Assembly (NCBI GenBank): GCA_036488585.1
Contig: DASXHH010000004.1
Span: 65,254 to 129,253, forward strand
Length of the DNA: 64,000 nt
Direction of reading: 5' to 3'
DNA from: Candidatus Saccharimonadia bacterium
Lineage (GTDB): Bacteria > Patescibacteriota > Saccharimonadia > UBA4664
Each line of letters begins with the position of its first letter. Position 1 is the first letter of the stretch. The notes under the pieces were generated by a model that was not told the origin of the DNA, made no database searches, and saw nothing but the letters and a program-made list of their open reading frames with translations. Below, in pieces: positions 6,794 to 56,845 of the stretch. The translations under genes were made by a program, and so were the position numbers.

Positions 6794-7513
6794 TCAGCTG
6801 ACCTTGGTGCCGATCGGCTCGCCCTCGATGACGCGGCGGATGTTGCCGTTGGTGAGGAGGTCGAAGATGACAATGGGAAGATGGTTGTCCATGGCGAGGG
6901 AGATGGCGGCATTGTCCATGACAGTCATGTGGGGATCGGTGAGAACCCGGTCGAAGCTGAGTGAGTCATGCTTTTTGGCGTCGGTGTACTTGCGGGGATC
7001 CTTGTCGAACACCCCTTCGACCTTGGTGGCTTTGAGCACAAGGGCGCACTCAAGCTCGAGCGCGGTGGTGACGGCGGCTGTGTCGGTGGTGACGTAGGGA
7101 TTGCCGGTACCGCCGGCCACTACTACTACCCTCCCCTTCTCCATGTGCCGGATACCACGGCGGCGGATGTAGGGCTCGGCCACAGAGTCGACACTGAGGC
7201 GAGTCTGCAGGCGGGCTGGCACGCCGTTTTGCTCGAGGATGTCGACCAGTGCAATGCCGTTGATGATGGTCGCGAGCATGCCCATGTAATCGCCGGAGGC
7301 ACGCTCGATGCCATTACCGGCCACGCTGGCGCCACGCATGATGTTGCCGCCGCCTACAACTACTGCCAGCTCGACGCCGGTGGCGTGGATGGTTTCGGCC
7401 AGTTCCTTGGCCAAGCGATCGATAAATTTGGGGTCAACTCCGTATTCACGATCGCCAGCAAATTGTTCGCCGGACAGTTTAAGAAGGACGCGGGGGTGTT
7501 TGCCTGGTTTCAT
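6794..7513 (-). CDS. pyrH: UMP kinase
   Basis: 239 aa with VLLKLSGE, VVGGGN and VVVAGGTGNPY(V)TTD motifs typical of PyrH. Confidence 0.9.
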   Translation of the reverse strand: MKPGKHPRVLLKLSGEQFAGDREYGVDPKFIDRLAKELAETIHATGVELAVVVGGGNIMRGASVAGNGIERASGDYMGMLATIINGIALVDILEQNGVPARLQTRLSVDSVAEPYIRRRGIRHMEKGRVVVVAGGTGNPYVTTDTAAVTTALELECALVLKATKVEGVFDKDPRKYTDAKKHDSLSFDRVLTDPHMTVMDNAAISLAMDNHLPIVIFDLLTNGNIRRVIEGEPIGTKVS

Positions 7514-7595
7514 ATGGCTTCAGCATAACAGAAGAAATACTAAACCGCCGGCAGGCCCCCCAATGTGGGTAGGTCCGCCGGCGGTCGAGTGGCGA

Positions 7596-7967
7596 TCACC
7601 ACCACGCCGGGATGCAATCGAAGGAAAAGGTAATGCCGGCACAATCCGTCGGTGACGCCAGCCTGATGACGAGGCCGTTGCGGAAATCACCGTCGGTGAC
7701 CGCGCTGTACAAGCTGACGCCATTCCGATCGAGTTCCATGGCTACGCTAAACCCGCGATGGCCGCCTTGGAAGTCGTGAAGTGGTCCGTGAACCACTCCT
7801 AGTCTCCAGGTGGCGCCCAGGTCGAGGGTGAACTTGATGGCGCGGCCAGTGTCCGGGTTTGCTGGCCCGGCATACCGCATGAGTACCTCGAGACTGGTGA
7901 TGTCGCTCGGTTGAAGGATGGGTGGTTCGGATGCGGCCCTAGTACGTTCGATGTCTTCGTCGGGCAT
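7596..7967 (-). CDS. hypothetical protein (~123 aa)
   Basis: ORF MPDEDIERTRAASEPP... The longer track ORF start overlaps the uvrD 3' end, so the internal Met was chosen. No recognisable domain. Confidence 0.4.
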   Translation of the reverse strand: MPDEDIERTRAASEPPILQPSDITSLEVLMRYAGPANPDTGRAIKFTLDLGATWRLGVVHGPLHDFQGGHRGFSVAMELDRNGVSLYSAVTDGDFRNGLVIRLASPTDCAGITFSFDCIPAWW

Positions 7968-23295: not shown

Positions 23296-23841
23296 TTAGA
23301 GACCGAGAGCACCGAGCGCACTAGTAACAGGACTGAGGACGTGTTTAACGAGGTTGGGTACGGGATTTTCAAGCTTAACGTTAACTTGAGGGGTGGCCGT
23401 GGGGGTATGGGCCAGCAGAGTGGGAGCGGGAGTGGTTTCGGCGGCCAAAACCCCGGTGGTGGGAACAGGCGTGGCGGACGGGCTGGCTGGCGTGCGGGTC
23501 GCTGCGACGGCAACCCTTGTGGCAGCTGGCGCGGACGGGGTGGCGCGGGTCGTGGCTGGATGCGAAGGCTTAATTTCCGAGCTCACGGCCTTAATGCCAC
23601 CGGCCGCCACGGCCAGAGTGACCACAGCGATCGCCACCGAGCGGGCCCAGGGCGGCAAGATGTTACGCATAAACCATTTACGGTGGCGAAAGCTGGCTTG
23701 CACCCGCTGAAGATCAGGACCGGTCAGCACCGTGGCGAGCTGGTCCTTGGGCACCCTTAGCTTGGTGCCGTCCTGAAAAACGAGCAGCACCTCTCCGTCG
23801 CCTTCGATCGAGAAATTCGCCAACTGCTTCATAGATACCAT
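23296..23841 (-). CDS. hypothetical membrane-anchored protein
   Basis: 181 aa with a soluble N-terminus, one TM (SVAIAVVTLAVAAGGI), and a Pro/Thr/Ala-rich extracytoplasmic tail. Confidence 0.5.
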   Translation of the reverse strand: MVSMKQLANFSIEGDGEVLLVFQDGTKLRVPKDQLATVLTGPDLQRVQASFRHRKWFMRNILPPWARSVAIAVVTLAVAAGGIKAVSSEIKPSHPATTRATPSAPAATRVAVAATRTPASPSATPVPTTGVLAAETTPAPTLLAHTPTATPQVNVKLENPVPNLVKHVLSPVTSALGALGL

Positions 23842-23920
23842 TTTAGCAAACGATCATGGCTGTTACTGCTTGAGCAAAGGCCGATTATCTGGTACTATTT
23901 ACCAGTTTCAAAAGCTACGT

Positions 23921-23996
23921 GGCCCCATCGTCTAGAGGTCTAGGACAGCGGGTTTTCAGTCCGTCAACCGGGGTTCGAATCCCCGTGGGGTCACCA
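23921..23996 (+). tRNA. tRNA-Glu (anticodon UUC)
   Basis: 76 nt. Acceptor GGCCCCA/UGGGGUC + A + CCA. D-arm UCGUCUAGAGGUCUAGGAC resembles E. coli tRNA-Glu. Anticodon stem GCGGG/UCCGU with loop UUUUCAG (UUC at 34-36, U33, A37). T-arm CGGGGUUCGAAUCCCCG. Confidence 0.85.
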
Positions 23997-24030
23997 TAAG
24001 CATTTATCAATGTCATTGTAATTATCGTTT

Positions 24031-24073
24031 GAGCTCGCCCGAATCAAGCTTGTGCGCTTGTCTCGGGCGAGCT
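24031..24073. terminator. perfect 12-bp inverted repeat hairpin (GAGCTCGCCCGA ... TCGGGCGAGCTC) between tRNA-Glu and the convergent small gene
   Basis: Seen directly. No clear U-tract on either side, so a terminator function is uncertain. Confidence 0.35.
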
Positions 24074-24117
24074 CTAGAGTGGCGCTGTATGAGCTTGGAG
24101 ACGCTGCTCCGGCCACA

Positions 24118-24420
24118 CTACTGTTCCACGGAACCCCGTACCGCCGGGGCCTCATTGGAATCGGCGGCGTAGCCACCAAATCCTTCATAAGGGTCCACGA
24201 CCAGCTTGGTGAGGGGCATACCGCCTGGTTTCCATGCCGGGGCGGGCACCTCAATTCCAAGTACCTCCCGCACAGAGCGGCGGCCTGCTTCTTCGGCCGC
24301 GACCGTCTCGGGATCATCTGAGTCGAAAATGCCTTCGTGCGGGTTGACCACCAATTCGGAGAGAGGCATTGCACCTTCATCTCGGGACGGCTCGCCGTGA
24401 GTATTCGTCAACTGAATCAT
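24118..24420 (-). CDS. small hypothetical protein with internal duplicated motif
   Basis: 100 aa with two copies of MPL[ST][EK]LVV[ND]P[HY]EG[IF]. Coding status is uncertain. Confidence 0.35.
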   Translation of the reverse strand: MIQLTNTHGEPSRDEGAMPLSELVVNPHEGIFDSDDPETVAAEEAGRRSVREVLGIEVPAPAWKPGGMPLTKLVVDPYEGFGGYAADSNEAPAVRGSVEQ

Positions 24421-24524
24421 CTCCCTTGCTCGCTTGTGTCGCCCACTTATTTAACGATGTTTTTCAAGATAGCACCAGAGGTGCCAGCGTATTACCTCAT
24501 CGTGGATAAGGTTCCAATTCGACT

Positions 24525-25112
24525 CTACCTCAGGAACTTATAGTTGAGGTAAACGAAACTGCTACTGCCTTTACCGTGGACCTGAACTCCCTCATCAAAT
24601 TTTTGTAAGCCAACTAGCTTTAGTTTTTGTTGTACCCCTTCCGGTAGCCAATAATTACCGCTCCCAACGATAATGGGCGCAATAAACTGATGCAGCTCAT
24701 CTACTAAACCGGCCCTTATGGCCTCCGCAGCTAAGTGAGGACCGCCAATACCAATATTCATATCGGATTTTGATTTTATACGACTAATTTCTTCAGCATT
24801 GAATTCGTGCTCAATTTCAGTGTTCTTTGTAGCGGGATTGGATAACGAGGAAGAATAGACGATTTTCTTCGCCGCTCGCCAAATCTTGCCATACTCGTTT
24901 GCAGCTGAGCTTGGCCCGTCTTCTGGCCAGGTTTCCCAAGCTGCCAAGGTTTCATACATATGGCGCCCGAGCAAAAGAATACCTGTGTCTCGCTCTATGT
25001 TATTGATGAATGCATGAACCTCTTCAGTTGGTGCCGCCCATTCGAAATTACCTTCTTTATCGGCTACATATCCGTCTAATGACGTCAGCATTAAATAAGT
25101 AAGTTTTGCCAT
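24525..25112 (-). CDS. dihydrofolate reductase family protein (RibD C-terminal-domain type)
   Basis: MAKLTYLMLTSLDGYVADKEGNFEW... and ...GGPHLAAEAIRAGLVDELHQFIAPIIVGSG, typical of YwjB/YyaP-like DHFR-fold proteins. Lower-GC gene. Confidence 0.75.
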   Translation of the reverse strand: MAKLTYLMLTSLDGYVADKEGNFEWAAPTEEVHAFINNIERDTGILLLGRHMYETLAAWETWPEDGPSSAANEYGKIWRAAKKIVYSSSLSNPATKNTEIEHEFNAEEISRIKSKSDMNIGIGGPHLAAEAIRAGLVDELHQFIAPIIVGSGNYWLPEGVQQKLKLVGLQKFDEGVQVHGKGSSSFVYLNYKFLR

Positions 25113-34840: not shown

Positions 34841-36742
34841 CTAGGCGCTGCAGGCCGTGTGTTGAGCCGCTGTGGCGGCGGTCTGGCAGTAGTTGGGGTT
34901 GCCGTTGGCCATGTCGGCCGGCGAATTGCTGTCGAACACGGCCTTGGCGTAATACGGCCCGACCGGCTGAAGCACGAAGGTCTGGCCCACTTGCGGGTCC
35001 GGCGGGTAGGCCGGGTTGCCAGACTGGAACTTCAGCCCGATGCTCCCATCGCCAACCTGGGTGACGGTTAGGTCCGATTGGTTGGCTGCGGACCAGCTAA
35101 TGCTGGCTGACAGCCCGCTGCCCCCGGGCTTGAACGTAAGCAGGACGCCGTGTACCCGCCAGACGCCTCCGTCCTGTAGCCAGTACCCAGGGTAGGAGAA
35201 CTGGTTAGCGGGTGCGGGCAGGCTGGCGAGGTAGGCGCGGATCGCGTTCGCTGTATCCTGTTCCACCTGAAGGCTGTGCGGCAGCGACTTGTGCGAGCAA
35301 GAAGCATCCAGATGGGTCGGAGTAGCGGTGCACGACACTACTAGATCCGATCCACTGCTGGAATCACGGGTCTGTAGCGCAGACTTCTGTCCGACGACGA
35401 TGTCGGAATGAGTGTTATCGATCGCATGGACTCCGAATACGACGGTGCCAATGGAGAGGTCGCCGCCGATAGCGGTGACACCGATGTTGGGCGGCAGCCA
35501 CGGCAGGCTCTGGATTTGAGGCGAACGCTCACTGAGCCCCTGGAGCGCAGAAATGTCGGGACAGGCGCTTACATTTGGGCCATACAGGCTTATCGGCGCG
35601 GTCGATCGGCAGGCAGCCTGAAACATCGGATCGACAACGTTGGCCCAGGCACTGCCCAGGTTGGGCGTGCCGATAGTGACTTCGTAGCCGATGTACCGAC
35701 CTGCACCACCGTTAGTGGCCGCCCAGCGGACAGCGTCGCCGCCCATGGAATGGGCAACGATTACGACCCGGCCGGGACCCCCGGCTTCGGCCGAAGCGGC
35801 AGCATCGCATTTGATGGTACCGGCGAGAGCCGGTCCGATAGCCGGGTTGTCGACCCAGGATGTGTTGACCGACGAGTAGTCGAACGTGGTCACGTCGATG
35901 CCCGGAATTTTGCTGAGTACCGTGAGCATGGAATGCGGATCGCTCAGTGTGCCCCAGGCTTCCGTAGGACTGCCCAGGAAGCCGTGGACCAGAATCACGG
36001 GCAGCCTGGTACCGACCCCCGGTAGGCAGTTGGTGCTGTACGAGGATTGCAGGCGGGCCAGGGTGGTGGCCTGAAAGACAGAACGGGTAGCGGTGGTGGC
36101 GACTGTGGTCTTGGCCATCCCGCCGAGGCGCGTGCCGTAGATCAGCCAGCCGGACTTGTCCTGGTATAGGCCCGCAGTGTAGACCCGGCCTTGCGCGTCA
36201 CCTGCTTGCACGAGCCCGAGATGGCCCTGGCTTCGGAAAGTCGACGCGTTGAATTTGACACCGGTGAGTCCCGGCTGCGTTATTGCGCCTCCGGGAACCA
36301 TTGCCAGGTCGGGTGCGAGGGCGCGGGCCTGAACACTGCGGTCTGTTGAATTGACCTCACGCTCCAGCACATGAAGGTTGGCTTGGAGCGCGGTCTCAGT
36401 ACGGGAGCTCGGCCCGCTGCTCGGGGCTGGCTGCCCGCCGTTCGGGGTTGGACCGGGGGCTGGCGGCATGTGAGCCGGCGCGGTCCCGGTCCAGACCGGC
36501 GCTGAAGCTGCTGCGCTGGAGGTCGAGGTAGGCGCCGAAGAAGAAGTGGTAGGCGCGGGCGATCGCTCAGCCGCGTGGACCGGCTGCTGGGCTGAGTGAT
36601 GGAAGAACAGATACCATGTCCAGAGAAACACGGCCACGATGCCCATTACAACTACCGAGACCCGCACCAATATGTCGAGCCTGGTGAGTCGTTGCCAGGA
36701 CTGGCGCGAGAAGGGCCAGATCGACCCTCGCCCATCCCTCAT
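34841..36742 (-). CDS. membrane-anchored alpha/beta hydrolase (lipase/esterase-like) with large C-terminal domain
   Basis: N-terminal TM plus Pro/Ser-rich linker. VILVHGFLGS and AHSMGG (GxSxG) are typical of lipase class 2/PGAP1-like folds. Confidence 0.7.
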   Translation of the reverse strand: MRDGRGSIWPFSRQSWQRLTRLDILVRVSVVVMGIVAVFLWTWYLFFHHSAQQPVHAAERSPAPTTSSSAPTSTSSAAASAPVWTGTAPAHMPPAPGPTPNGGQPAPSSGPSSRTETALQANLHVLEREVNSTDRSVQARALAPDLAMVPGGAITQPGLTGVKFNASTFRSQGHLGLVQAGDAQGRVYTAGLYQDKSGWLIYGTRLGGMAKTTVATTATRSVFQATTLARLQSSYSTNCLPGVGTRLPVILVHGFLGSPTEAWGTLSDPHSMLTVLSKIPGIDVTTFDYSSVNTSWVDNPAIGPALAGTIKCDAAASAEAGGPGRVVIVAHSMGGDAVRWAATNGGAGRYIGYEVTIGTPNLGSAWANVVDPMFQAACRSTAPISLYGPNVSACPDISALQGLSERSPQIQSLPWLPPNIGVTAIGGDLSIGTVVFGVHAIDNTHSDIVVGQKSALQTRDSSSGSDLVVSCTATPTHLDASCSHKSLPHSLQVEQDTANAIRAYLASLPAPANQFSYPGYWLQDGGVWRVHGVLLTFKPGGSGLSASISWSAANQSDLTVTQVGDGSIGLKFQSGNPAYPPDPQVGQTFVLQPVGPYYAKAVFDSNSPADMANGNPNYCQTAATAAQHTACSA

Positions 36743-36875
36743 CGGGCTTCCCCTTTCGATCGGAAACGTGAAAGGCCTAGTAAGGAAATGGGCCGTAATG
36801 GCCCTTCTTTACCGCTGCGTTACGATACTATAATTGCGTACTTCCATCAACAGACGGAATACTAGTTGCTGTGAC

Positions 36876-37055
36876 TTAGCGGCCGACGTTGGTGACGAAG
36901 GCGTAAATGGCCATGAGGACGGCGAAGGCCCAGGAACCCCAGTGTGGGGACCAATCGGGGGTGCGGCGGAGGTGGTAGTAGAGCCATTCGGCGGCGCGGA
37001 GACCCAAGAAGACTAAGGTGAAGATGGCAAAGGCGGTGAGGAGCGACCTAAGCAT
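36876..37055 (-). CDS. possible small membrane protein (59 aa), not in ORF track
   Basis: Manual translation: MLRSLLTAFAIFTLVFLGLRAAEWLYYHLRRTPDWSPHWGSWAFAVLMAIYAFVTNVGR, with two hydrophobic helices. AGGGG 7 nt upstream. Followed by hairpin GGGCCATTACGGCCC. Confidence 0.3.
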   Translation of the reverse strand: MLRSLLTAFAIFTLVFLGLRAAEWLYYHLRRTPDWSPHWGSWAFAVLMAIYAFVTNVGR

Positions 37056-37064
37056 ACGCCGCCC

Positions 37065-37514
37065 CTATTTGCCGTCTATACCAAGCTTTTTGGCAATGGT
37101 ATCGAGTACCTGGCGAGGTGTGAGTTCGGCTTTCACCAGATACTCGGCGCCGTACGAGATGGCTTTTTTGCGATCGCCCACGTCGTTGGAGTTGGTGAGG
37201 ACGATGACGGGCATGGAGCCGAAATCGAAGCCATCGCTTTGCAGCGCGCCCAGTACCTCCAGGCCGGTGAGCTCAGGCATGTTGAGGTCGAGGACGGCGA
37301 GGTCCGGGCGCTGGGCCTTAATGGACTCGTAGGCCTCGCGGCCGTTGGTTTTGAGCACCACCTTAAAGCCGGCGCCCTCCAGCTTAATCTGGTACATGCG
37401 TGAAATAAATGGGTCGTCCTCGGCAATGAGAATAGTCTTACCGCCCCCGGATTGGGTGTCCTTGGATTCGGTTTTGGGTTCGTCAGTGGGACTGGGCATG
37501 TTTGGTGTCCTCAT
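37065..37514 (-). CDS. single-domain response regulator (CheY-like receiver)
   Basis: ILIAEDDPF...LAVLDLNMPELTG...VIVLTNSND...KAEL. No output domain. Overlaps the 3' end of the upstream kinase gene. Confidence 0.8.
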   Translation of the reverse strand: MRTPNMPSPTDEPKTESKDTQSGGGKTILIAEDDPFISRMYQIKLEGAGFKVVLKTNGREAYESIKAQRPDLAVLDLNMPELTGLEVLGALQSDGFDFGSMPVIVLTNSNDVGDRKKAISYGAEYLVKAELTPRQVLDTIAKKLGIDGK

Positions 37515-39663
37515 GTTTTACGGGTTTGGGCTTGAACGGCAGTTCGAAGCCGAATGTCGAGCCCTTACCCTCTACGCTGTTGAATATAATTGTACCATCC
37601 TGGTCTTGGATAACGCGCTTGGCCAGATATAGGCCCAGCCCGGTGCCGTCAGGCCGGACGATTTGGGCGTTTTCGGCGCGATAAAACTTAGTGAAGAGTT
37701 TTCTGCGGGCTTGTTCGGGCACACCGATGCCGGTGTCGTGAACCTCCAGATGAACCATGTCGCCGGTTTGTTTGAGGACCACTCGAACTTCGCCTTTTTG
37801 GGTGTAATAGATGGCGTTGTCGATGAAGTTCATGACCACCTGGCGAGTCTTGTTTTCGTCGATTTCCACAGGCGGGAGCGGATGATCGGGCCGGTCGAAC
37901 ACCAACTTAAGGCCCTTGCCGTCGGCATGCTGGGTGGCTTGGCGAACCTCATCTTCGATCATCTGCACCATGTCGGTGGGGGTGCGCTGGATGAGGAAAC
38001 GGCCCGCGTTAAGACGGGAGATGTTGAGCAGATCAGAAATGAGATTCACCATGCGCTCAGAGGAGTCGAAAGCGAACTGAGCAAATTCTTTTTGGCCCGG
38101 CGAGATGGGGCCGGCGTCGCCTTCAAGCATCATCGATAGGTAACCTTTGATGGTGGTAAGCGGGGTGCGGAGCTGGTGTGAGGCCATGGAAATGAACTCA
38201 TCTTTGGCCTTATCGAGCTCTTTGAGATGGCGGTTGGCGACCCGCAGGCGATTGGTAGCGTGGTCTACACGGGCCTGGAGCGATGCGTTGAAGGCCTGGA
38301 TTTCAGCGTAGGCCTTGGCGTTTAGAATTGCCACCGCTAGCTCGTTACGAATGATTTCGAGCAGCGCGATGTCTTGGTTGGAGTAGATATCACCGGAGAG
38401 TTTGTCGCCGAGGAGGAAGTAACCCACAAACTGGTCATGGGTGGACAGCATCATACTTATGCGTACGCCATGACCTTCCAGGAGACTTTTGCGCTCGCCT
38501 CCCTCGAGCTCGTCGGCCACCAGAATGCTGCGGTTAAGGCGCCGCAACTCTGGCGCCACCATGAGCCTATGCGGGAGCGGGCCGTAATGCTCGATGCGGT
38601 AGACACTGTCATTGTTAAACACAATAATCTGACCGAACTGGATGCGCAGACTATCACATAGGGTGGTGAGGGCTTTTTTGAGGATGCGATTGAGGTCGAG
38701 CTCAGAGACTAGAATCTGAGTGAAATTATTGAGAACAACCTGGGAATCATAATGGTCACGATAGAAAACTCTTTCTGTGATTCGTTCAAAGAAGCGACGA
38801 AGCTGCTGAAATGTGAGGGCGAGTATGAGCGCCATCGCCAGGTATACGAAGCTTTGAGAGACTTCCACCCTGTGTGCAGGGAACAGAACCTGCGAAATCG
38901 CAAAAATGGCAAGAACATAAATAACCGCCACAGTGGCGAGGACAAGAACAAATGCAACGGACCTAGCTACGGCTAGGCGGATGTCAAAAAGCCGGTGTTT
39001 GACTATGGCATACGATATGCCACAAACAAGAAAAAGGGTTGAAAATGGACCATAGTTTGCGAGCGTGAAGTTGTGCGCTAATAATGGCAGGATTAAGTTG
39101 GTCGTAAGCGCCACCACAAATGATGACAGGATACCAGCAATAATATAGCCGAGCCGAGCACGCGTAGAGCCTGTGGAGTGCTTGAAAGAGAACAGGAATA
39201 TCCCAAGGGCTAGTCCGAAATACGCAATAAGGTATGCGAAATACATAGGTACAGCAGGCCCAAATACTATTCCGACCCCTTGGGGAACAATAGTAATACC
39301 TTCAACTACCAGCTTAGTAGAACTTAAGCCCGACTCAACGAATGCTATTAGGGTTGCCGAAACGACGAGCCATTTTGAGGTGCGCCCTAGAATTCCCGTA
39401 AATGAAGCACTAAAGCCTAGCACGAAGAAGGCAGACAAGGCCGGGAAGACAAAAATGGCAGAATTTAATACAAGAAGAACACCAGAGCTTTGGGTAGAAT
39501 CATTGCTAAAGTAGTTTGTAACCAGCCAACCGATAACAGTAAGTACGAAACCAAAGAAGAATAGATTCGACTTATCCTGTTTGTTCTTCAGAAGAACAAA
39601 CAGCCCAATCATCAGATGAATTAGGCATATCAGAACTAGTGCTATTACGCTTACGCCCACCAT
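37483..39663 (-). CDS. multi-TM sensor histidine kinase (7TM-type sensor + GAF-like + HisKA + HATPase_c)
   Basis: About 7 N-terminal TM helices and a central region. H-box SMASHQLRTPLTTIKGY. NAIYYT, DTGIGV and GTGLGL boxes. Confidence 0.85.
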   Translation of the reverse strand: MVGVSVIALVLICLIHLMIGLFVLLKNKQDKSNLFFFGFVLTVIGWLVTNYFSNDSTQSSGVLLVLNSAIFVFPALSAFFVLGFSASFTGILGRTSKWLVVSATLIAFVESGLSSTKLVVEGITIVPQGVGIVFGPAVPMYFAYLIAYFGLALGIFLFSFKHSTGSTRARLGYIIAGILSSFVVALTTNLILPLLAHNFTLANYGPFSTLFLVCGISYAIVKHRLFDIRLAVARSVAFVLVLATVAVIYVLAIFAISQVLFPAHRVEVSQSFVYLAMALILALTFQQLRRFFERITERVFYRDHYDSQVVLNNFTQILVSELDLNRILKKALTTLCDSLRIQFGQIIVFNNDSVYRIEHYGPLPHRLMVAPELRRLNRSILVADELEGGERKSLLEGHGVRISMMLSTHDQFVGYFLLGDKLSGDIYSNQDIALLEIIRNELAVAILNAKAYAEIQAFNASLQARVDHATNRLRVANRHLKELDKAKDEFISMASHQLRTPLTTIKGYLSMMLEGDAGPISPGQKEFAQFAFDSSERMVNLISDLLNISRLNAGRFLIQRTPTDMVQMIEDEVRQATQHADGKGLKLVFDRPDHPLPPVEIDENKTRQVVMNFIDNAIYYTQKGEVRVVLKQTGDMVHLEVHDTGIGVPEQARRKLFTKFYRAENAQIVRPDGTGLGLYLAKRVIQDQDGTIIFNSVEGKGSTFGFELPFKPKPVKHEDTKHAQSH

Positions 39664-39709: not shown

Positions 39710-40606
39710 CTAACCAAGGTCCATGGGGTCATGTAGCCGTAATGCATTTAGCAGGAGTGCCTTGAATAGCGTTGCATGATGGTGCAGAAAGGGCCATCTG
39801 ATTAACCGGCTCGTACGTTCTTTCACGTCAATATGGAGGACTGCTGGTGCAGGAGGCTGAACTTTGAACCCAACAAGAAGCCCAAGAACGAGTGTGGCGG
39901 TCATTGAAGCACAGAGATCAACGGCAGGAGCGATTGCCGGCGCTTCAATACTCCCGTCTGATACCGCCCGCAATACTTGAAGATCGCCATAGCTCGGGAT
40001 ATGGGGCAGCCAACGCCACAGGTTAACTTTCGCATTCCCTGAGTTGAATTGCTCCAAGTTTATATCTTTTGATAAACCCAGATATCTTTCATAGGCATAC
40101 CCAACTGGATCAAACCAAGTTACCGTTGCACCAAAACCAATTTCTACTCCCATAACTAGCGCAATCTTCTTATCTCGTGCCAATCGGGCAAGTTGTATGC
40201 CAAGCTGAGGAAGTTTGAAGTCTATTGCCTCAATAATGAGGTCGCTGCCAGAGACAAAATCCCTGATATTGGAATCGTTGATTCCGATTTCGAGTAAATC
40301 AAGCTTAATCTTAGGGTTGATGTCGCGGCACAGTTTAGCAATTGTATCTGCCTTGGATTTGCCAATTGTGCTTTGGTAGCTCCCCTCTTGACGATTTAAG
40401 TTTGATATAGAAAAGACTTCAGGATCTGCAATTTTCAGATGCCCCACTCCGAGGCGCGTGAGCTCAACTGCGATTCTGCCACCGACGCCCCCCACACCTG
40501 CAATGGCTATGGTGGAGTTCCCAAGCTTGTCTTGTTGGGTTTTACTAATAAATCCAGTATTTCTGCTTAGGTGATTTTCTTCCGGTTCACGCTTCATCGA
40601 CTGCAT
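39710..40606 (-). CDS. ThiF/MoeB/HesA-family E1-like adenylyltransferase
   Basis: Rossmann P-loop IAIAGVGGVGGRIAVELTRLGVGHLKIAD. No obvious C-terminal CxxC or rhodanese domain. Confidence 0.8.
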   Translation of the reverse strand: MQSMKREPEENHLSRNTGFISKTQQDKLGNSTIAIAGVGGVGGRIAVELTRLGVGHLKIADPEVFSISNLNRQEGSYQSTIGKSKADTIAKLCRDINPKIKLDLLEIGINDSNIRDFVSGSDLIIEAIDFKLPQLGIQLARLARDKKIALVMGVEIGFGATVTWFDPVGYAYERYLGLSKDINLEQFNSGNAKVNLWRWLPHIPSYGDLQVLRAVSDGSIEAPAIAPAVDLCASMTATLVLGLLVGFKVQPPAPAVLHIDVKERTSRLIRWPFLHHHATLFKALLLNALRLHDPMDLG

Positions 40607-41420
40607 CTCTTAATACTTCATCGCCACGACTATAGTTTAATGCTCTCAGATGATGAGGTTTGAGATATTTAGTGGGAAGCCCCTCCAGGAAGAACCGAAT
40701 ATACTCCCGGTGAAGAAGACGCTGGGCGGGGTTAAGGCTTCTAGAGTTTGAGATCATTATATCCAGCGAGCGATCAACCTCAAGCGCGGCCGGTATGACC
40801 CTACTCCCCATATAGAAGGTTTCTTCACCTATCTGCATAAGAGCATCACGAAACAAGAACTTGAGTCGGTTGTAGTAGATCGCATCACATGCCATTAACC
40901 AAAGTTGGTGCTGAGCCCGAACCGAATGCTGCCATAATGCACGATAAATTAGGAAGCTAGCGAAGCTTGAGTAGCCTTTTCGTTTTGCTAGAGCTGAAAT
41001 CTCCACACATTGCATGGGATCTAACGATTCTATGGCTTTACGAACGTTATTTTCAAGTTTCAGCTTTTCCATGGTCGGGAAGGAAGCGTGGCCTTTCTTA
41101 CCTTTAGGGTGGATCTGCCTAGCTGTGGCGACAATTTGCTCCTCGCTACCGTTCATTTCCACGACAACAAAATATGTCGCGTGAGACTGATATGGGTCAT
41201 GCTCAACAGAGATGGTGCCATTTGCGTCTATATGGCCGGGCTCTATATATCCGTTTTCAAGATACACCTCGGCATGGAGACGCTTTGCTTGGTGAAGATG
41301 AGTTTGTTTGGTTACACGTAACACCTTCAGGTTCGGGTGCCCAGATCTCAGAAGGCGACGGTACGCGAGCATCCTTGAAATTTTTCGGATCATTAAGAGT
41401 CCTTTTGCTTGCCTTAACAT
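40587..41420 (-). CDS. GNAT-fold autoinducer-synthase / N-acyl amino acid synthase-like protein
   Basis: AKRLHAEVYLENGYIEPGHIDANGTISVEHDPYQSHATYFVVV follows the a.rLR..VY.eelg....dg.E.DeyD..a.h.l pattern of LuxI/N-acyl-amino-acid-synthase (PEP-CTERM-associated) families. Call by motif only. Confidence 0.45.
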   Translation of the reverse strand: MLRQAKGLLMIRKISRMLAYRRLLRSGHPNLKVLRVTKQTHLHQAKRLHAEVYLENGYIEPGHIDANGTISVEHDPYQSHATYFVVVEMNGSEEQIVATARQIHPKGKKGHASFPTMEKLKLENNVRKAIESLDPMQCVEISALAKRKGYSSFASFLIYRALWQHSVRAQHQLWLMACDAIYYNRLKFLFRDALMQIGEETFYMGSRVIPAALEVDRSLDIMISNSRSLNPAQRLLHREYIRFFLEGLPTKYLKPHHLRALNYSRGDEVLRDAVDEA

Positions 41421-41463
41421 GGCATTATGGTAAAAATATAGCAGCTACTAATATAAGAATGAA

Positions 41464-42135
41464 GTGATAGACACAGATCGTGCCGCTCCGAAAGTAACAT
41501 GGCTTGATTCCGATGTTGCGGCTCGGATTATCCACGCAAACTCATTATTATGCTATTGGTTATCAAAGGGAGTTGGCAATTTACTTAGCCACTCTACTCG
41601 CATTTCTCTAGACGAGGGAGATATTGACCCCAAGTCACTCTATGTTGTTGCTGCAAATCACCAGTGTCGCATTGATCCTTTTCTGATTTGTGCACAGATG
41701 CCATACTCCGCATGGAAAAGGCTCGGAGACTTCAGATACTTTCTCTACAATCCGTTATTGGACATACCCGTGTTGGGGTCTGTTTTGCGCGGACTTGGTT
41801 GCTTTCCTGCAAAATATCACACAAAGTACCCATACGGCTTAGGCTACGCCACAGAACAGCTCTCAAAAGGAAGAAGCATATTTATATTCCCCGAGGGACG
41901 CCGTACGATTCAGGGAGAATACCCCGCACACAATGGAGTGGCAGTGCTCGCAAAGCTCCCACGGGTGATGATAATCCCTGCACATATTGAATGGCGCGAT
42001 CGAGGGGCTTGGCATGGCTTTAAAATCGGCATCGGAAAGCCTTTTAACGGCAAAGACCTGACGGCACAAGAGATACTCAATAGAGTATATGAAGTTCCGG
42101 TTGATAAGCCCTTACGGATAAGAACGAGAGCTTAA
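41464..42135 (+). CDS. lysophospholipid acyltransferase (PlsC/LPLAT family)
   Basis: VVAANHQCRIDPFL (HX4D acyltransferase motif) and FPEGRRT (motif III). Confidence 0.75.
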   Translation: MIDTDRAAPKVTWLDSDVAARIIHANSLLCYWLSKGVGNLLSHSTRISLDEGDIDPKSLYVVAANHQCRIDPFLICAQMPYSAWKRLGDFRYFLYNPLLDIPVLGSVLRGLGCFPAKYHTKYPYGLGYATEQLSKGRSIFIFPEGRRTIQGEYPAHNGVAVLAKLPRVMIIPAHIEWRDRGAWHGFKIGIGKPFNGKDLTAQEILNRVYEVPVDKPLRIRTRA

Positions 42136-43121
42136 TGAATAATAGTTACCCTAACGAAGCGAGCGATATAAACCCAAAACACATTGAGCTATTGAATGCC
42201 AGCCTCCGGGCGCCCTCTGCACACAATGCGCAGCCCTGGCGAATAAAGCCAATAGACAGCCACAAATACGAATTACATTACATTCAAAGCTCTGACCTAC
42301 CAGAAGACCCAAACAATAAGGACGCGTATCTCACAATGGGTGCCTTCGTGGAGACAATGGCCTTGCAAGCTCCAAATTTTGATCTTAGTGTGAAAGTTGA
42401 GGCGGTTTTGACCCGCCATGATACGGATTTCCTCATGGCTATGGTGACAATTGACGACACGAAAGATAGCCATGCCGACCCCTTGAGTAAGTGGGTAGAC
42501 AAAAGGGTTACGAATAGAAATAGCTACCTAAAAGAAGACTTGCCGCCAGAGCTTGAAGTCAAGCTAAAGAACCTAGGAAACGTGCTATTAGATCCAAAGT
42601 TACTGAAGGGTGCTGTCCTTGAGGCTAGCATGAAGGGCTGGTCAAATAGGAGATTTGTTTCAGATTTGAAGAATTGGCTCAGAACTGATGATTCTGCACC
42701 CGATGGTCTGAGCGTGGGCCTGATGAACTTAACGGCAATAGATGTTATGGCCCTACGCTTCGCGTTCTGGAAGGGCAGCTTTAAGTCGAAGTTAATGCAG
42801 TGGGTGTTTTCTTCAAGCGAAGTGTCTATGTTTGCAACAGCCCCGAAGGTGGCAGTGCTTACTTCGCCTGGCATGACCCCCTCGGCCCTCTTTGGGGCTG
42901 GTAGAAGGTTGCTACGGTCTTGGGTAGAAATTACTTCTGCTGGTTACACCACACAACCATACTCAGTGGGAGTGGATGACGAGGCTGCGGCTCTCAAGGT
43001 GGCGGAGGTGGCCGGCGGCGGAGTACCTGTGGCACTTTACAGGATAGGTAAGCCCTCGAAGCCCTTGAGTGCCCCCTCGCACAGAAGGCCTCTTAGCGAC
43101 GTGCTCATACCACGTTCGTAG
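42135..43121 (+). CDS. nitroreductase-superfamily protein, long form (SagB-type dehydrogenase-like?)
   Basis: LRAPSAHNAQPWRIKP is the nitroreductase FMN-binding signature. At 328 aa it is much longer than classical NfsA/NfsB, closer to SagB/McbC-type or Acg-type. Confidence 0.6.
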   Translation: MNNSYPNEASDINPKHIELLNASLRAPSAHNAQPWRIKPIDSHKYELHYIQSSDLPEDPNNKDAYLTMGAFVETMALQAPNFDLSVKVEAVLTRHDTDFLMAMVTIDDTKDSHADPLSKWVDKRVTNRNSYLKEDLPPELEVKLKNLGNVLLDPKLLKGAVLEASMKGWSNRRFVSDLKNWLRTDDSAPDGLSVGLMNLTAIDVMALRFAFWKGSFKSKLMQWVFSSSEVSMFATAPKVAVLTSPGMTPSALFGAGRRLLRSWVEITSAGYTTQPYSVGVDDEAAALKVAEVAGGGVPVALYRIGKPSKPLSAPSHRRPLSDVLIPRS

Positions 43122-43214
43122 CTAAGCCGTTTGACGCCATGGAATGAGCGCACAAGAGATATTGGACCGGATACTGGCGTTGCCGGTAAAGTAACAAGCG
43201 CCTATACTGAGCAC

Positions 43215-43598
43215 ATGAGTAACCAAAAAGTCAAAGTCGCAATTATCGAGGACGATATTGCGATTGTTCAGATGTACCGGACCAAGTTTGAGAACGAGGG
43301 CTACGAGGTGGCGACTGCCGGCGATGGCGTGACGGGCCTGGAGCTAATTGAGTCGTTTGACCCCGATATAATTTTGCTCGACTTAATGATGCCGAACATG
43401 AACGGGCTCGACATGCTGAGCAAACTGCGGTCGCAGCCGAATGGTCGTGAGGCCAAGGTGGTGGTGCTGACAAACATGGGTGATACCGAGACTGCGACTA
43501 AGGTATACAAGATGGCGGCCGATGATTACATCGTGAAGGCCGAGATGACGCCAAAGGAAGTAGCCGAGCGCGTACGGGCGCTATTGGCGAAAAAGTAA
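43215..43598 (+). CDS. single-domain response regulator (CheY-like receiver)
   Basis: KVAIIEDD...ILLDLMMPNMNG...VVVLTNMGD...VKAE. No output domain. Confidence 0.8.
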   Translation: MSNQKVKVAIIEDDIAIVQMYRTKFENEGYEVATAGDGVTGLELIESFDPDIILLDLMMPNMNGLDMLSKLRSQPNGREAKVVVLTNMGDTETATKVYKMAADDYIVKAEMTPKEVAERVRALLAKK

Positions 43599-44394: not shown

Positions 44395-44763
44395 CTACCC
44401 TGCCAGCCATCGCCGTACCAGCTCCTCGGCAACCAGATCAGGCGTATAGTCGGACTTAACCCAGAAATCTTCGGCACCGAGGCGCCTTACTATGTCTTGC
44501 TGTCTGGCGCCGGCCATGTTTGAGAACACAATAACGTGAGTTTTATGTACGCGCGGGCCCAATCGGCGCAGGAATTCCTCACCGCCCATTACCGGCATCA
44601 TCATGTCTAGCAGTATAAAATTGGGATCAAAATCAGATAATTTGCCGAGTGCGACCTGGCCATTTTCCGCGACCTGAATGCTGAAACCAACCAGCTCAAA
44701 CTTCATGGCGTAGATTTCGCGGATGGCCTCATCGTCTTCTATGAGCAAAACTTTAGGTAACAT
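44395..44763 (-). CDS. single-domain response regulator (CheY-like receiver)
   Basis: VLLIEDDEAI...ILLDMMMPVMGG...VIVFSNM...VKSD. No output domain. Confidence 0.8.
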   Translation of the reverse strand: MLPKVLLIEDDEAIREIYAMKFELVGFSIQVAENGQVALGKLSDFDPNFILLDMMMPVMGGEEFLRRLGPRVHKTHVIVFSNMAGARQQDIVRRLGAEDFWVKSDYTPDLVAEELVRRWLAG

Positions 44764-55370: not shown

Positions 55371-56297
55371 TCAGCGCCAGAATTCGGTGAGCTGGCCGGC
55401 GAGAGCTTTGCCTTGGCTGTAACCGACTTGCGCAGACGGCACCCACATAGATGGATCCATCACATTCATGCCTAACGAGTTGCGGGTGTTCAAGTCGTAT
55501 AGCACCCCACTATCGGGGAAGATGGTTTCGACTCTGCTGCCGCCGGCACGTAGTTCGTCGCTCTGGGTGGCGAGATGCATGCCCCAGTCTAGAGGCATCC
55601 GTGATCTGCCGCCGAATGGTGATAGCACCAGCACCCGCCCGTATCCGGCCGCCAGATCGGCGTTCTCGTTGCGCCGGTAGCCGCCGTCAATGTACCGGTG
55701 ATCGCCGATGATGTAGGGAGGGGCACCCGGCCCGGAAGTGCTGGCGGCGACGGCGTCCACCATGTCGACTCCGCTGTGGCGGTCGAACACGGCCGGTTCA
55801 CCGGTATGGGCATCAACCGCCGTGATCTGCACCGTTTGTTCCGGCCATTGCTGACTGGGCAGCCGGGCGGCGACGGTAGCCCGCCACTGCGTTCGCCTGG
55901 ATGCGTCCGAGACGGCATCCAGCTCGAGCGCCGACGCGCCCAATCTGCGGCGCATGTCAGACACGTCCCGCGCTGCAGCGATGATTGTGCTCATCTTTTC
56001 CAGAGGGCTCACCGCCGACCTATTCGGGCGCTGTACACCGCCAGATCCGGCCGGACTAGTTCGTAACTGGGACGGAGCGGCAAGAACTTCGGCCAGCAGT
56101 TTGGACGGGTTGGTACTAGTGATCTGGACCGCGGTCGTCGCTCCGGCCGAGGTGCCGATGATCAGATCGGCATCCGTCACATCCAGCCCGGCATCAAGCA
56201 AGCCGGCGATGACGCCGATCTCCCACCCATTGCCGGCCGCTCCGCCGCCGCCAAGGACCAACGCTCGCTCACCCCGCAAATTAGTGTCTTTACTCAT
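55371..56297 (-). CDS. patatin-like phospholipase
   Basis: GGGAAGNGWEIGV (oxyanion GGGxxG), GTSAG (GxSxG) and IDGG (DGA/G) motifs. Confidence 0.8.
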   Translation of the reverse strand: MSKDTNLRGERALVLGGGGAAGNGWEIGVIAGLLDAGLDVTDADLIIGTSAGATTAVQITSTNPSKLLAEVLAAPSQLRTSPAGSGGVQRPNRSAVSPLEKMSTIIAAARDVSDMRRRLGASALELDAVSDASRRTQWRATVAARLPSQQWPEQTVQITAVDAHTGEPAVFDRHSGVDMVDAVAASTSGPGAPPYIIGDHRYIDGGYRRNENADLAAGYGRVLVLSPFGGRSRMPLDWGMHLATQSDELRAGGSRVETIFPDSGVLYDLNTRNSLGMNVMDPSMWVPSAQVGYSQGKALAGQLTEFWR

Positions 56298-56396
56298 CGA
56301 TTTATTCGTTATTGTCGTCGAGGTTAATCTTGATAATAGTATCTGGCATCGGCTTCATAACTTAACTATAAAGACTATAAAGCTAAAGTAAAAAAG

Positions 56397-56460
56397 CAAA
56401 AACGACCTTCGGTTTAAGCATAAGTACTATAGAGGGCCATCATGGAGGCTATCGTGTTGG
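56397..56460 (+). repeat. terminator-like hairpin + conserved box, copy 3 (aaaaacgaccttcggtt TAAGCATAAGTACTATAGAGGGCCATCATGGAGGCTATCGTG)
   Basis: A-run/hairpin/T-run followed by the box. Overlaps the stop of the NTF2-like pseudogene. Confidence 0.6.
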
Positions 56461-56845
56461 CACTGAATGATGCTCGTGTTTGATAGTCCACGCTCCATTG
56501 ACCTTCTCCAACCCAATGGTGAGCCTGAAGTCTAATGGAATGAATACGCCGCCTACTTTATCTTCACACCGCATACCTGCGAAGCAGAAGGCCGCCCGAT
56601 CATCGGCGACTACATGTAGTTCTTTAATGTCGAACACGCCCTTTTTGGTGTTGGCAAAGAATATTTCCCAGGTTTTTCGGTACCCCCCCTAGCCCGATTA
56701 ATTGAAAGGGCTCGGGAACGTCGAACATTACCATATCCGGAGAATGATGGGCTAGTATCGTATCCAGATCTCGCGAGCGAACTGCCATTGCCCAATTCTG
56801 TACCAACTCTCGGACCGCCGACGATTCTTTTGACTCAGGGCTCAT
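56449..56845 (-). pseudogene. NTF2-like (SnoaL/DUF4440-type) protein gene interrupted by +1 frameshift in a C7/G7 homopolymer
   Basis: Two adjacent ORFs (56624-56845 and 56449-56637) in frames offset by one. Removing one C from the run at 56683-56689 gives a continuous ...FDVPEPFQLIGLGGYRKTWEIFFANTKKGVFDIKELHVVADDRAAFCFAGMRCEDKVGGVFIPLDFRLTIGLEKVNGAWTIKHEHHSVP. Confidence 0.6.

Follow-up and report, generated by a model that had tools for sequence, protein, structure and literature searches.

The four adjacent genes at positions 39,710 to 43,121 of a 64,000-nucleotide stretch of a Candidatus Saccharimonadia metagenome-assembled genome (contig DASXHH010000004.1, positions 65,254 to 129,253 of the forward strand; the whole stretch is referred to as the window) encode a GNAT-fold protein, a ThiF-like adenylating enzyme, a PlsC/LPLAT-family acyltransferase and a flavin-dependent oxidase (FDO), and were assigned, with a probability of about 0.6, to the N-acyl-oxazolone (azlactone) pathway represented by OxzAB, TyzACB and TrzAS, in a split, Saccharibacterial form. 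This assignment is carried by the folds, motifs and homology of the GNAT, ThiF and FDO families and by the recurrent linkage and fusion of the three, all of which the analysis itself showed. New with respect to the published systems are the split divergent layout, the added LPLAT, the exchange of ThiF for a methyltransferase, the strict linkage to a sensor kinase and the host, a member of the Candidate Phyla Radiation (CPR). An initial annotation, made from the letters of the window alone, had proposed that the product is a small molecule bearing an acyl group, for example an N-acyl amino acid, which is supported by the correspondence of GNAT, ThiF and FDO to the published N-acyl-oxazolone pathway; its statement that the precise product could not be inferred was too pessimistic for the product class and stands for the amino acid and the acyl chain.

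The biosynthesis of N-acyl oxazolones was worked out between 2021 and 2025, and the authors of those studies describe the physiological role of the products as unresolved, with signalling suspected. In Pseudoalteromonas rubra the N-acyltransferase OxzA is paired with OxzB, a ThiF-nitroreductase fusion termed "oxazolone synthetase" (de Rond et al.). The M. tuberculosis proteins TyzA, TyzC and TyzB (Rv2336, Rv2337c and Rv2338c) comprise an acyltransferase whose closest structures are FeeM and BjaI, a monomeric Acg-like FDO desaturase and a ThiF-type ATP-dependent cyclase, respectively (Grigg et al. 2023, PMC10404671). In the TrzA/TrzS system (Rv1356c/Rv1355c; Kleetz et al. 2025, PMC12856293) ThiF and FDO are fused in the single protein TrzS, in which the D217A substitution abolishes cyclisation and R540A impairs desaturation, and the closest solved homolog of its FDO domain is 2YMV; oxazolones do not survive exposure to acids or alcohols (PMC12856293). 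A methyltransferase is an additional member of the N-acyl dehydrotyrosine clusters known from planctomycetes and proteobacteria, and strains without ThiF and nitroreductase make saturated N-acyl tyrosines (PMC12479983). Among the papers listed by a literature search that combined oxazolones with the CPR, none mentions oxazolones.

The GNAT-like protein, read as an open reading frame (ORF) of 277 amino acids (aa), contains the pattern AKRLHAEVYLENGYI...VEHDPYQSHATYFVVV, from which a LuxI/N-acyl amino acid synthase-type assignment had been made initially, and this assignment was borne out by fold comparison. The AlphaFold2 (AF2) model (predicted local distance difference test, pLDDT, 92) returned LasI, FeeM (TMt 0.75-0.80), MesI, TofI and BjaI as top Foldseek matches, and the protein is, as modelled, a FeeM/LuxI-type GNAT fold. 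Its score against the FeeM model PF21926 was 21.1 bits (E=3e-4), below the gathering cutoff of 27 bits, and its match to TIGR03694 was also sub-threshold. The FeeM cutoff was passed by the family relatives P0345 (27.8 bits) and the L052 GNAT (52.9 bits), indicating that the window GNAT is a divergent relative at the superfamily level. No match of the window GNAT was found to PF00765 (Autoind_synth) in the Pfam scan or to OlsB in the NCBIfam search, while the relative in locus L011 weakly matches OlsB models. Profile-profile alignment with hhalign of the window GNAT subfamily (GNATa) to the GNATs associated with GNAT-ThiF-FDO triads gave a probability of 96% (E=4e-9), with the motif EISA of the former aligned to EVSR of the latter; a single-sequence alignment of the family to one protein of the second subfamily, GNATb, was weak (7% probability). 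The close family is rare, with 22 clusters among 5.8 billion, and a profile search of 1.84 billion representatives yielded 671 GNAT relatives; all six relatives found in reference genomes belong to Saccharimonadia. In relatives the protein starts at the counterpart of M10, which makes 41,393 (268 aa) the probable start of the gene, and an exact-sequence database lookup of the 277-aa ORF returned no match because the database entry uses this downstream start. Fusions of GNAT to a methyltransferase were confirmed by Pfam domains for P0021 (485 aa) and P0337 (529 aa), and P0265 and P0318 were taken as such fusions from their 485-aa length alone; other family members of 400-540 aa carry C-terminal extensions without a Pfam match.

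The initial identification of a stand-alone ThiF-family E1-like enzyme proved correct. From its sequence, the protein is predicted to have an intact adenylation site without sulfur-relay features: the invariant residues G37xGGxG42, D61, N71, R72 and K85 are present, position 129, equated with TrzS D217 through a TcdA alignment rather than by direct alignment to TrzS, is Asp in the window protein and either Asp or Glu in the other members of the clade, and no CxxC motif or conserved Cys was found in 21 clade members. Scores against the ThiF, MoeB and TcdA equivalog models of NCBIfam were all far below the cutoffs, and no ThiS/MoaD-like ORF was seen near the gene in the ORF list of the window. 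The closest solved relatives are TcdA cyclodehydratases. The top NCBIfam models were PRK08223, PRK14851, PRK14852 and PRK07877 (Rv1355c family), all below their cutoffs; against the Rv1355c-family model the window proteins reached 58 bits, with a curated cutoff of 476. The same top model, PRK08223, was obtained for the ThiF half of the ThiF-FDO fusion in locus L021. The extra N-terminus of about 300 aa in PRK14852 was matched neither by the window GNAT nor by GNATb proteins, and the idea that this model represents a three-domain Rosetta stone with a GNAT-like N-terminus was therefore dropped.

The fourth protein of the cassette, of 328 aa, had been placed in the nitroreductase superfamily with a likeness to SagB/McbC-type dehydrogenases. 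The superfamily stands and the SagB/McbC likeness does not: no match to TIGR03605 (SagB-type dehydrogenase) was obtained at E<=0.01, and no McbC or SagB structure appeared among the top 50 Protein Data Bank (PDB) fold matches of the AF2 model (pLDDT 94). Only M. smegmatis Acg (2YMV) matches this model over its full length (E=1e-15, TM 0.73), whereas classical dimeric nitroreductases match half of it, and the protein is an Acg-like monomeric FDO. Its alignment to NF047509 (Acg family) covers the full length (residues 2-319) at 136 bits, with a curated cutoff of 199. Matches to PRK07877 and PRK14851, which model ThiF-nitroreductase fusions, were obtained for its N-terminal part as well, and a phmmer search of the PDB gave a weak match (E=1e-3) to MsAcg, an FDO-B1 relative. 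With the FDO half of the L021 fusion the window FDO shares 52% identity, and with the FDO encoded beside GNAT-ThiF in locus L012 it shares 58%. In the window the FDO gene is not adjacent to the ThiF gene, from which it is separated by two genes and a strand switch over 1.5 kb. The public annotation of the FDO gene (P0143, VGH44_01245) is only 261 aa long; homologs cover 96-99% of the 328-aa ORF, including the conserved flavin-site motif RAPSAHNAQPW at residues 25-35, which probably places the true start upstream of the deposited one.

In the predicted pathway, each chemical step of which is modelled on the published enzymology of homologs, the GNAT would N-acylate an amino acid with acyl-CoA or acyl-acyl carrier protein as donor, the ThiF protein would adenylate the free carboxylate of the N-acyl amino acid, attack by the amide oxygen would close the 5(4H)-oxazolone ring, and the Acg-like FDO would introduce a C-alpha/C-beta double bond using O2. 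Support for this pathway comes from the top folds of the GNAT, since FeeM and BjaI are the structures reported as closest to TyzA, from 2YMV, which is both the only full-length match of the window FDO and the closest solved homolog of the TrzS FDO domain, and from the L021 ThiF-FDO Rosetta stone, which is preceded by a GNAT and followed by an orthologous kinase. The adenylation motifs and TcdA likeness of the ThiF protein and the overlaps and short gaps between genes in the window count in its favour as well.

Among the characterised systems, TyzACB shares with the window three separate proteins (a FeeM/BjaI-fold N-acyltransferase, an Acg-like FDO of about 340 aa and a ThiF of about 300 aa) and an acyltransferase on the strand opposite to part of the cluster. 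It differs in that its FDO and ThiF genes are adjacent in one operon with the acyltransferase divergent, whereas in the window the GNAT and ThiF genes are coupled and the FDO gene lies on the divergent arm behind the LPLAT gene; no LPLAT or flanking two-component system is reported for TyzACB, and the window has both, in a CPR host. OxzAB and TrzAS resemble the window in having the N-acyltransferase immediately upstream of the ThiF cyclase and combine ATP-dependent cyclisation with O2-dependent desaturation in a fused architecture also found in L021; in the window, by contrast, ThiF and FDO are unfused and on opposite strands. The NasY clusters for stieleriacines, kyonggic acids and thalassotalic acids, which contain an N-acyl amino acid synthase, ThiF, a nitroreductase-family protein and a methyltransferase (PMC12479983), show a variability that parallels the ThiF, methyltransferase and FDO variability of the Saccharibacterial cassettes. 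In the NasY clusters the methyltransferase accompanies ThiF, whereas in the Saccharibacterial cassettes it takes the place of ThiF and in some cases forms one protein with the GNAT or has a hydrophobic N-terminal extension.

The GNATa subfamily was represented by 10 distinct loci (the window, L001, L002, L003/4, L005/6/15 and L016-L020). The LPLAT gene is the divergent neighbour of the GNAT gene in all nine loci in which the upstream side is present, and the gene between GNAT and kinase encodes ThiF in 4/10 and an S-adenosylmethionine (SAM)-dependent methyltransferase in 6/10, which is in some cases fused to the GNAT and in four of the six carries a hydrophobic N-terminal extension; the four are the methyltransferases of about 325 aa in the position of ThiF in L017-L020. 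The presence of a methyltransferase, in some cases probably anchored in the membrane, in place of ThiF in sister genomes suggests that the lineage makes a family of head-group-modified N-acyl amino acids. Members of GNATb pass the Pfam cutoffs of Acetyltransf_5, Autoind_synth or FeeM, the GNATs of L011 and L021 reaching that of Autoind_synth. A GNATb gene stands directly upstream of ThiF in L011 and L012, both with Saccharibacteria-like gene context, in the actinobacterium Rathayibacter (L007) and in the soil contigs L052 and L055. The gene order is FDO-GNAT-ThiF-kinase in L012, GNAT followed by a 636-aa ThiF-FDO fusion and the orthologous kinase in L021, and FeeM-FDO-ThiF in L052/L055. Counting the window, the three families are thus brought together in four different gene orders and in one fusion. 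GNAT-ThiF pairs with overlapping reading frames recur across phyla, and the ThiF clade of the window is also found in Leucobacter. Regulators also stand beside other triads: in Rathayibacter these are a kinase-like protein and a response regulator of LuxR type, and in L052 there is a large regulator of the LuxR family.

Several observations weigh against the assignment to the oxazolone pathway. The window GNAT itself falls below the Pfam and NCBIfam cutoffs, and in its motif, E140-I-S142-A143, Ala replaces the Arg of LuxI-type and triad GNATs (EISA versus EVSR). The LPLAT has no counterpart in the known oxazolone pathways; by analogy with OlsA/GlsA it might add or supply a second acyl group. 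The FDO has as its best NCBIfam model one named for Acg/Rv3131, both of which are FDO-B enzymes considered by the authors not to be involved in oxazolone synthesis (PMC10404671); the window FDO may belong either to FDO-A, the clade linked to oxazolones, or to FDO-B, and the supplement of that FDO paper has no CPR entries. Among the GNATa cassettes the FDO is found in the window only and is missing from the other nine, and in an FDO-centred metagenome sample GNAT and ThiF lay near the FDO in 2 of the 23 loci flanked by 3 kb or more in both directions and, as a third case, in L055, where less flanking sequence is present. The FDO could thus be an unrelated lipid desaturase that landed in the operon. 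The small number of FDO loci with GNAT and ThiF marks the enzyme as a facultative (accessory) recruit, as FDOs in general have been described (Grigg et al. 2023, PMC10404671). Linkage in related genomes, on which the initial annotation had made its reading depend, holds for GNAT-ThiF and GNAT-LPLAT and fails in most relatives for the FDO; FolD and a P-type ATPase are also conserved neighbours, and the linkage is therefore partly general synteny within the lineage.

The pairs OlsB/OlsA and GlsB/GlsA combine an Acetyltransf_5/FeeM-like N-acyltransferase with a PlsC-family O-acyltransferase. On this model the GNAT would make an N-(hydroxy)acyl amino acid that the LPLAT would O-acylate to a phosphorus-free membrane lipid, with ThiF and FDO as tailoring or unrelated enzymes and the two-component system regulating envelope remodelling. 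Such aminolipid synthesis is possible but doubtful. It would account for the constant divergent GNAT/LPLAT arrangement in GNATa loci, and the initial identification of a divergently transcribed PlsC-type acyltransferase with an HX4D motif was confirmed (H66QCRID71, with FPEGRR at 142-147); the weak OlsB matches of the L011 GNAT and the hydrophobic extensions of the L017-L020 methyltransferases, which suggest a membrane-embedded substrate, point the same way. The window GNAT, however, has no OlsB match and overlaps the ThiF gene rather than the LPLAT gene, and the LPLAT is absent from the GNATb cassettes L011, L012 and L021, which retain ThiF and kinase. The aminolipid and oxazolone readings are partly compatible.

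A classical N-acyl homoserine lactone (AHL) quorum-sensing system, in which the GNAT would be a SAM-using LuxI-type synthase and the adjacent kinase a LuxN-like receptor, is unlikely. Fold matches to LasI, TofI, MesI and BjaI, the kinase immediately downstream in every locus and the Autoind_synth scores of the L011 and L021 GNATs favour it, as do the 18 CPR LuxI homologs beside sensory kinases that were read as complete AHL quorum-sensing systems (Bernard et al. 2020, PMC7567580). Those pairs resemble the window in that a LuxI-like gene adjoins a sensor kinase in CPR genomes, and in the parts of that paper that were searched there is no mention of ThiF, FDO, methyltransferase or LPLAT partners (PMC7567580). 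Against an AHL synthase, the window GNAT lacks an Autoind_synth match and has its best scores with two models of non-lactonising N-acyl amino acid synthases, FeeM and TIGR03694. Ala takes the place of Arg in its ExSR motif, and the obligatory ThiF or methyltransferase partner implies a free carboxylate in need of modification, which an AHL does not have.

It is quite improbable that the neighbourhood is coincidental, with a housekeeping sulfur-carrier or tRNA-modifying ThiF, a PlsC and a stand-alone Acg-like FDO that share no pathway. Most FDO homologs are indeed unlinked to ThiF or GNAT and broad synteny is kept around the locus, but the ThiF protein scores far below every ThiF/MoeB/TcdA equivalog cutoff and has no Zn site, the overlapping GNAT-ThiF pairs recur across phyla, and both ThiF-FDO and GNAT-methyltransferase fusions exist. 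Finally, the suggestion of the initial annotation that the genes form a YcaO-less tailoring set resembling those of ribosomally synthesised and post-translationally modified peptides (RiPPs), in which ThiF would serve to activate the C-terminus of a peptide and the flavoprotein to oxidise azolines, can draw on the peptide substrates of the ThiF relatives MccB and PaaA and on a conserved 59-aa ORF nearby, yet is highly implausible, as the FDO has neither a TIGR03605 match nor McbC/SagB among its top 50 folds, no precursor-like ORF was seen, and all ThiF relatives found here are paired with a GNAT and none with a peptide gene. The 59-aa ORF was rejected as a RiPP precursor, being hydrophobic and kept in L003/L004, a methyltransferase cassette without ThiF or FDO.

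Table 1. Features of the cassette and its flanking regulatory genes in the window.
Feature	Positions	Strand	Evidence and remarks
59-aa small hydrophobic protein	36876..37055	-	Last gene of the operon; N-terminal transmembrane (TM) segment by hydropathy
Single-domain response regulator	37065..37514	-	PF00072 E=5e-21; 32-nt overlap with 3' end of kinase gene
Sensor histidine kinase, seven-transmembrane (7TM) N-terminus	37483..39663	-	HisKA_7TM, HisKA and HATPase_c; candidate sensor/regulator of the cassette
ThiF-like adenylating enzyme, 298 aa	39710..40606	-	PF00899 E=2e-34; predicted ATP-dependent cyclase (TyzB/OxzB-ThiF analogue)
FeeM/LuxI-fold GNAT, 277 aa	40587..41420	-	Predicted N-acyl amino acid synthase (OxzA/TyzA/NasY analogue)
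AT-rich divergent intergenic region	41421..41463	.	43-70 bp, depending on the GNAT start chosen; sequence reading
PlsC/LPLAT-family acyltransferase, 223 aa	41464..42135	+	PF01553 E=3e-13; HX4D and FPEGRR; accessory, putative role
Nitroreductase-superfamily flavoprotein (Acg-like FDO), 328 aa	42135..43121	+	NF047509 E=2e-39
Single-domain response regulator	43131..43598	+	PF00072 E=2e-25; co-directional with LPLAT-FDO

The four ORFs of the cassette were confirmed at the coordinates initially assigned, as was, by domain calls, their location between a histidine kinase on the minus strand and a single-domain response regulator on the plus strand (Table 1). That the kinase, the response regulator behind it and the 59-aa ORF belong to a conserved unit had been missed. 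The GNAT and ThiF reading frames have 20 nt in common, the stop codon of LPLAT and the start codon of FDO overlap in the sequence ATGA, a 46-bp gap separates the ThiF stop from the kinase start, and the kinase and response regulator genes overlap. A kinase ortholog lies immediately downstream of the GNAT and its partner gene in 10/10 GNATa loci and in L011, L012 and L021, and all GNATa loci that were checked have a response regulator and an ORF of 59-60 aa behind the kinase. The response regulator ortholog (70-78% identity) stands directly behind the kinase in L001-L006 and L015-L017, and the 59-aa ORF, whose product has no Pfam match, is kept in sequence and position behind it in L001 and L005, an ORF of 59-60 aa being called at the same place in L002, L003/L004 and L006. 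The biosynthetic genes are likely to be co-transcribed with the 7TM kinase, the response regulator and the 59-aa protein. Conservation of the order GNAT, variable gene, kinase, response regulator and small protein, together with the short or overlapping spacing, suggests that the lipid product and the two-component system are linked through regulation or sensing, with the general synteny of the lineage as a caveat. It is suggested, tentatively and at less than even odds, that cassette, kinase, response regulator and 59-aa protein form a complete signal-synthase/receptor module.

On the other arm, an ortholog of the 43,131-43,598 regulator (56-88% identity) stands directly behind the LPLAT gene in relatives; tblastn alignments begin at query residues 22-35, and the true start is likely near 43,215. 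Three receiver-only response regulators (37,065-37,514, 43,131-43,598 and 44,395-44,763) occur within 8 kb. In L001-L004 a CHASE3 histidine kinase lies between the P-type ATPase and the third regulator, and no such gene was seen in the window. L005 and L006 are the same sequence (NCBI and Logan records); the LPLAT gene (about 7,177-7,758) was called in L006 only and L005 lists a 78-aa ORF in its place, but the tblastn match is intact in both records, so this is an annotation difference only.

The GC content of the cassette was initially described as noticeably lower than that of its flanks, and this was confirmed: it is 0.476, compared with a window mean of 0.555 (standard deviation 0.038, 3.4-kb windows; rank 25/606), and GC at third codon positions (GC3) is 0.45-0.54 in the cassette genes versus 0.65-0.75 in the flanks. 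The low-GC tract also takes in the N-terminal sensor half of the kinase (38,401-39,663). An equivalent dip was found in 7/8 related loci, indicating a property of the cassette and not recent insertion in this genome, and recent horizontal transfer was therefore rejected as an event specific to the window. Two further low-GC tracts in the window, 23,500-25,100 and 55,800-56,700 (0.46-0.50), are of similar depth, and the first surrounds the sole tRNA (23,921-23,993) found by the Rfam scan of the window, which showed no riboswitch near the cassette. The promoter and terminator scan gave counts equal to those of shuffled sequence; no promoter was called in 41,421-41,463, and the hairpin called at 36,790-36,804, beyond the 59-aa ORF, comes from a scan that performed no better than chance.

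Just downstream of the operon, at 34,841-36,742 on the minus strand, a 633-aa protein (GC 0.64, no Pfam match) combines a hydrophobic segment at the N-terminus with a linker rich in Pro, Ser, Thr and Ala and with the motif VIVAHSMGG, which is lipase-like, and could, judging from these features, be a secreted or anchored esterase or lipase of relevance to lipid scavenging; in relatives its place is taken by a polysaccharide deacetylase and DUF2127. In Rathayibacter sp. (L007/L008, 5,291-6,933) an unannotated 237-aa FeeM/TIGR03694-like GNAT with an EVSRL motif overlaps the start of the ThiF gene, and the pair is followed on the opposite strand by genes for DUF8320, a HATPase_c-containing protein and a LuxR-type response regulator, which suggests that Microbacteriaceae have uncharacterised GNAT-ThiF systems without a local FDO. 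In a metagenome-assembled genome of Dehalococcoidales (L009/L010, 3,201-10,043) the gene for a ThiF belonging to this clade is transcribed divergently from that for a HisKA_7TM-GAF-GGDEF-HD protein. The ThiF gene adjoins genes for a B12-radical SAM enzyme and for a protein resembling GH3 acyl-acid amido synthetases, with no GNAT present; by analogy, this locus may be an amide-forming and ThiF system tied to a 7TM cyclic di-GMP enzyme.

The genes of an oxazolone-type pathway would thus have been kept in a bacterium with a genome of about 1 Mb, which raises the question of the acyl-donor source in an organism regarded as reliant on host lipids. Cultured Saccharibacteria have Actinobacteria as hosts, and given the GNATb-type GNAT-ThiF genes of Microbacteriaceae (Rathayibacter), a signal might be shared between epibiont and host. 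The CPR pairs of "LuxI and kinase" would, on this reading, be systems for N-acyl amino acids or oxazolones and not for AHLs. As the kinase remains constant while the tailoring gene varies (ThiF, ThiF-FDO fusion or methyltransferase), it offers a concrete receptor or regulator candidate for the role of oxazolones. If the module exists as suggested, a labile N-acyl oxazolone, or a methylated analogue in sister genomes, would be sensed by a co-transcribed 7TM kinase, which would be the first candidate receptor and would give bacterial oxazolones their first defined role.

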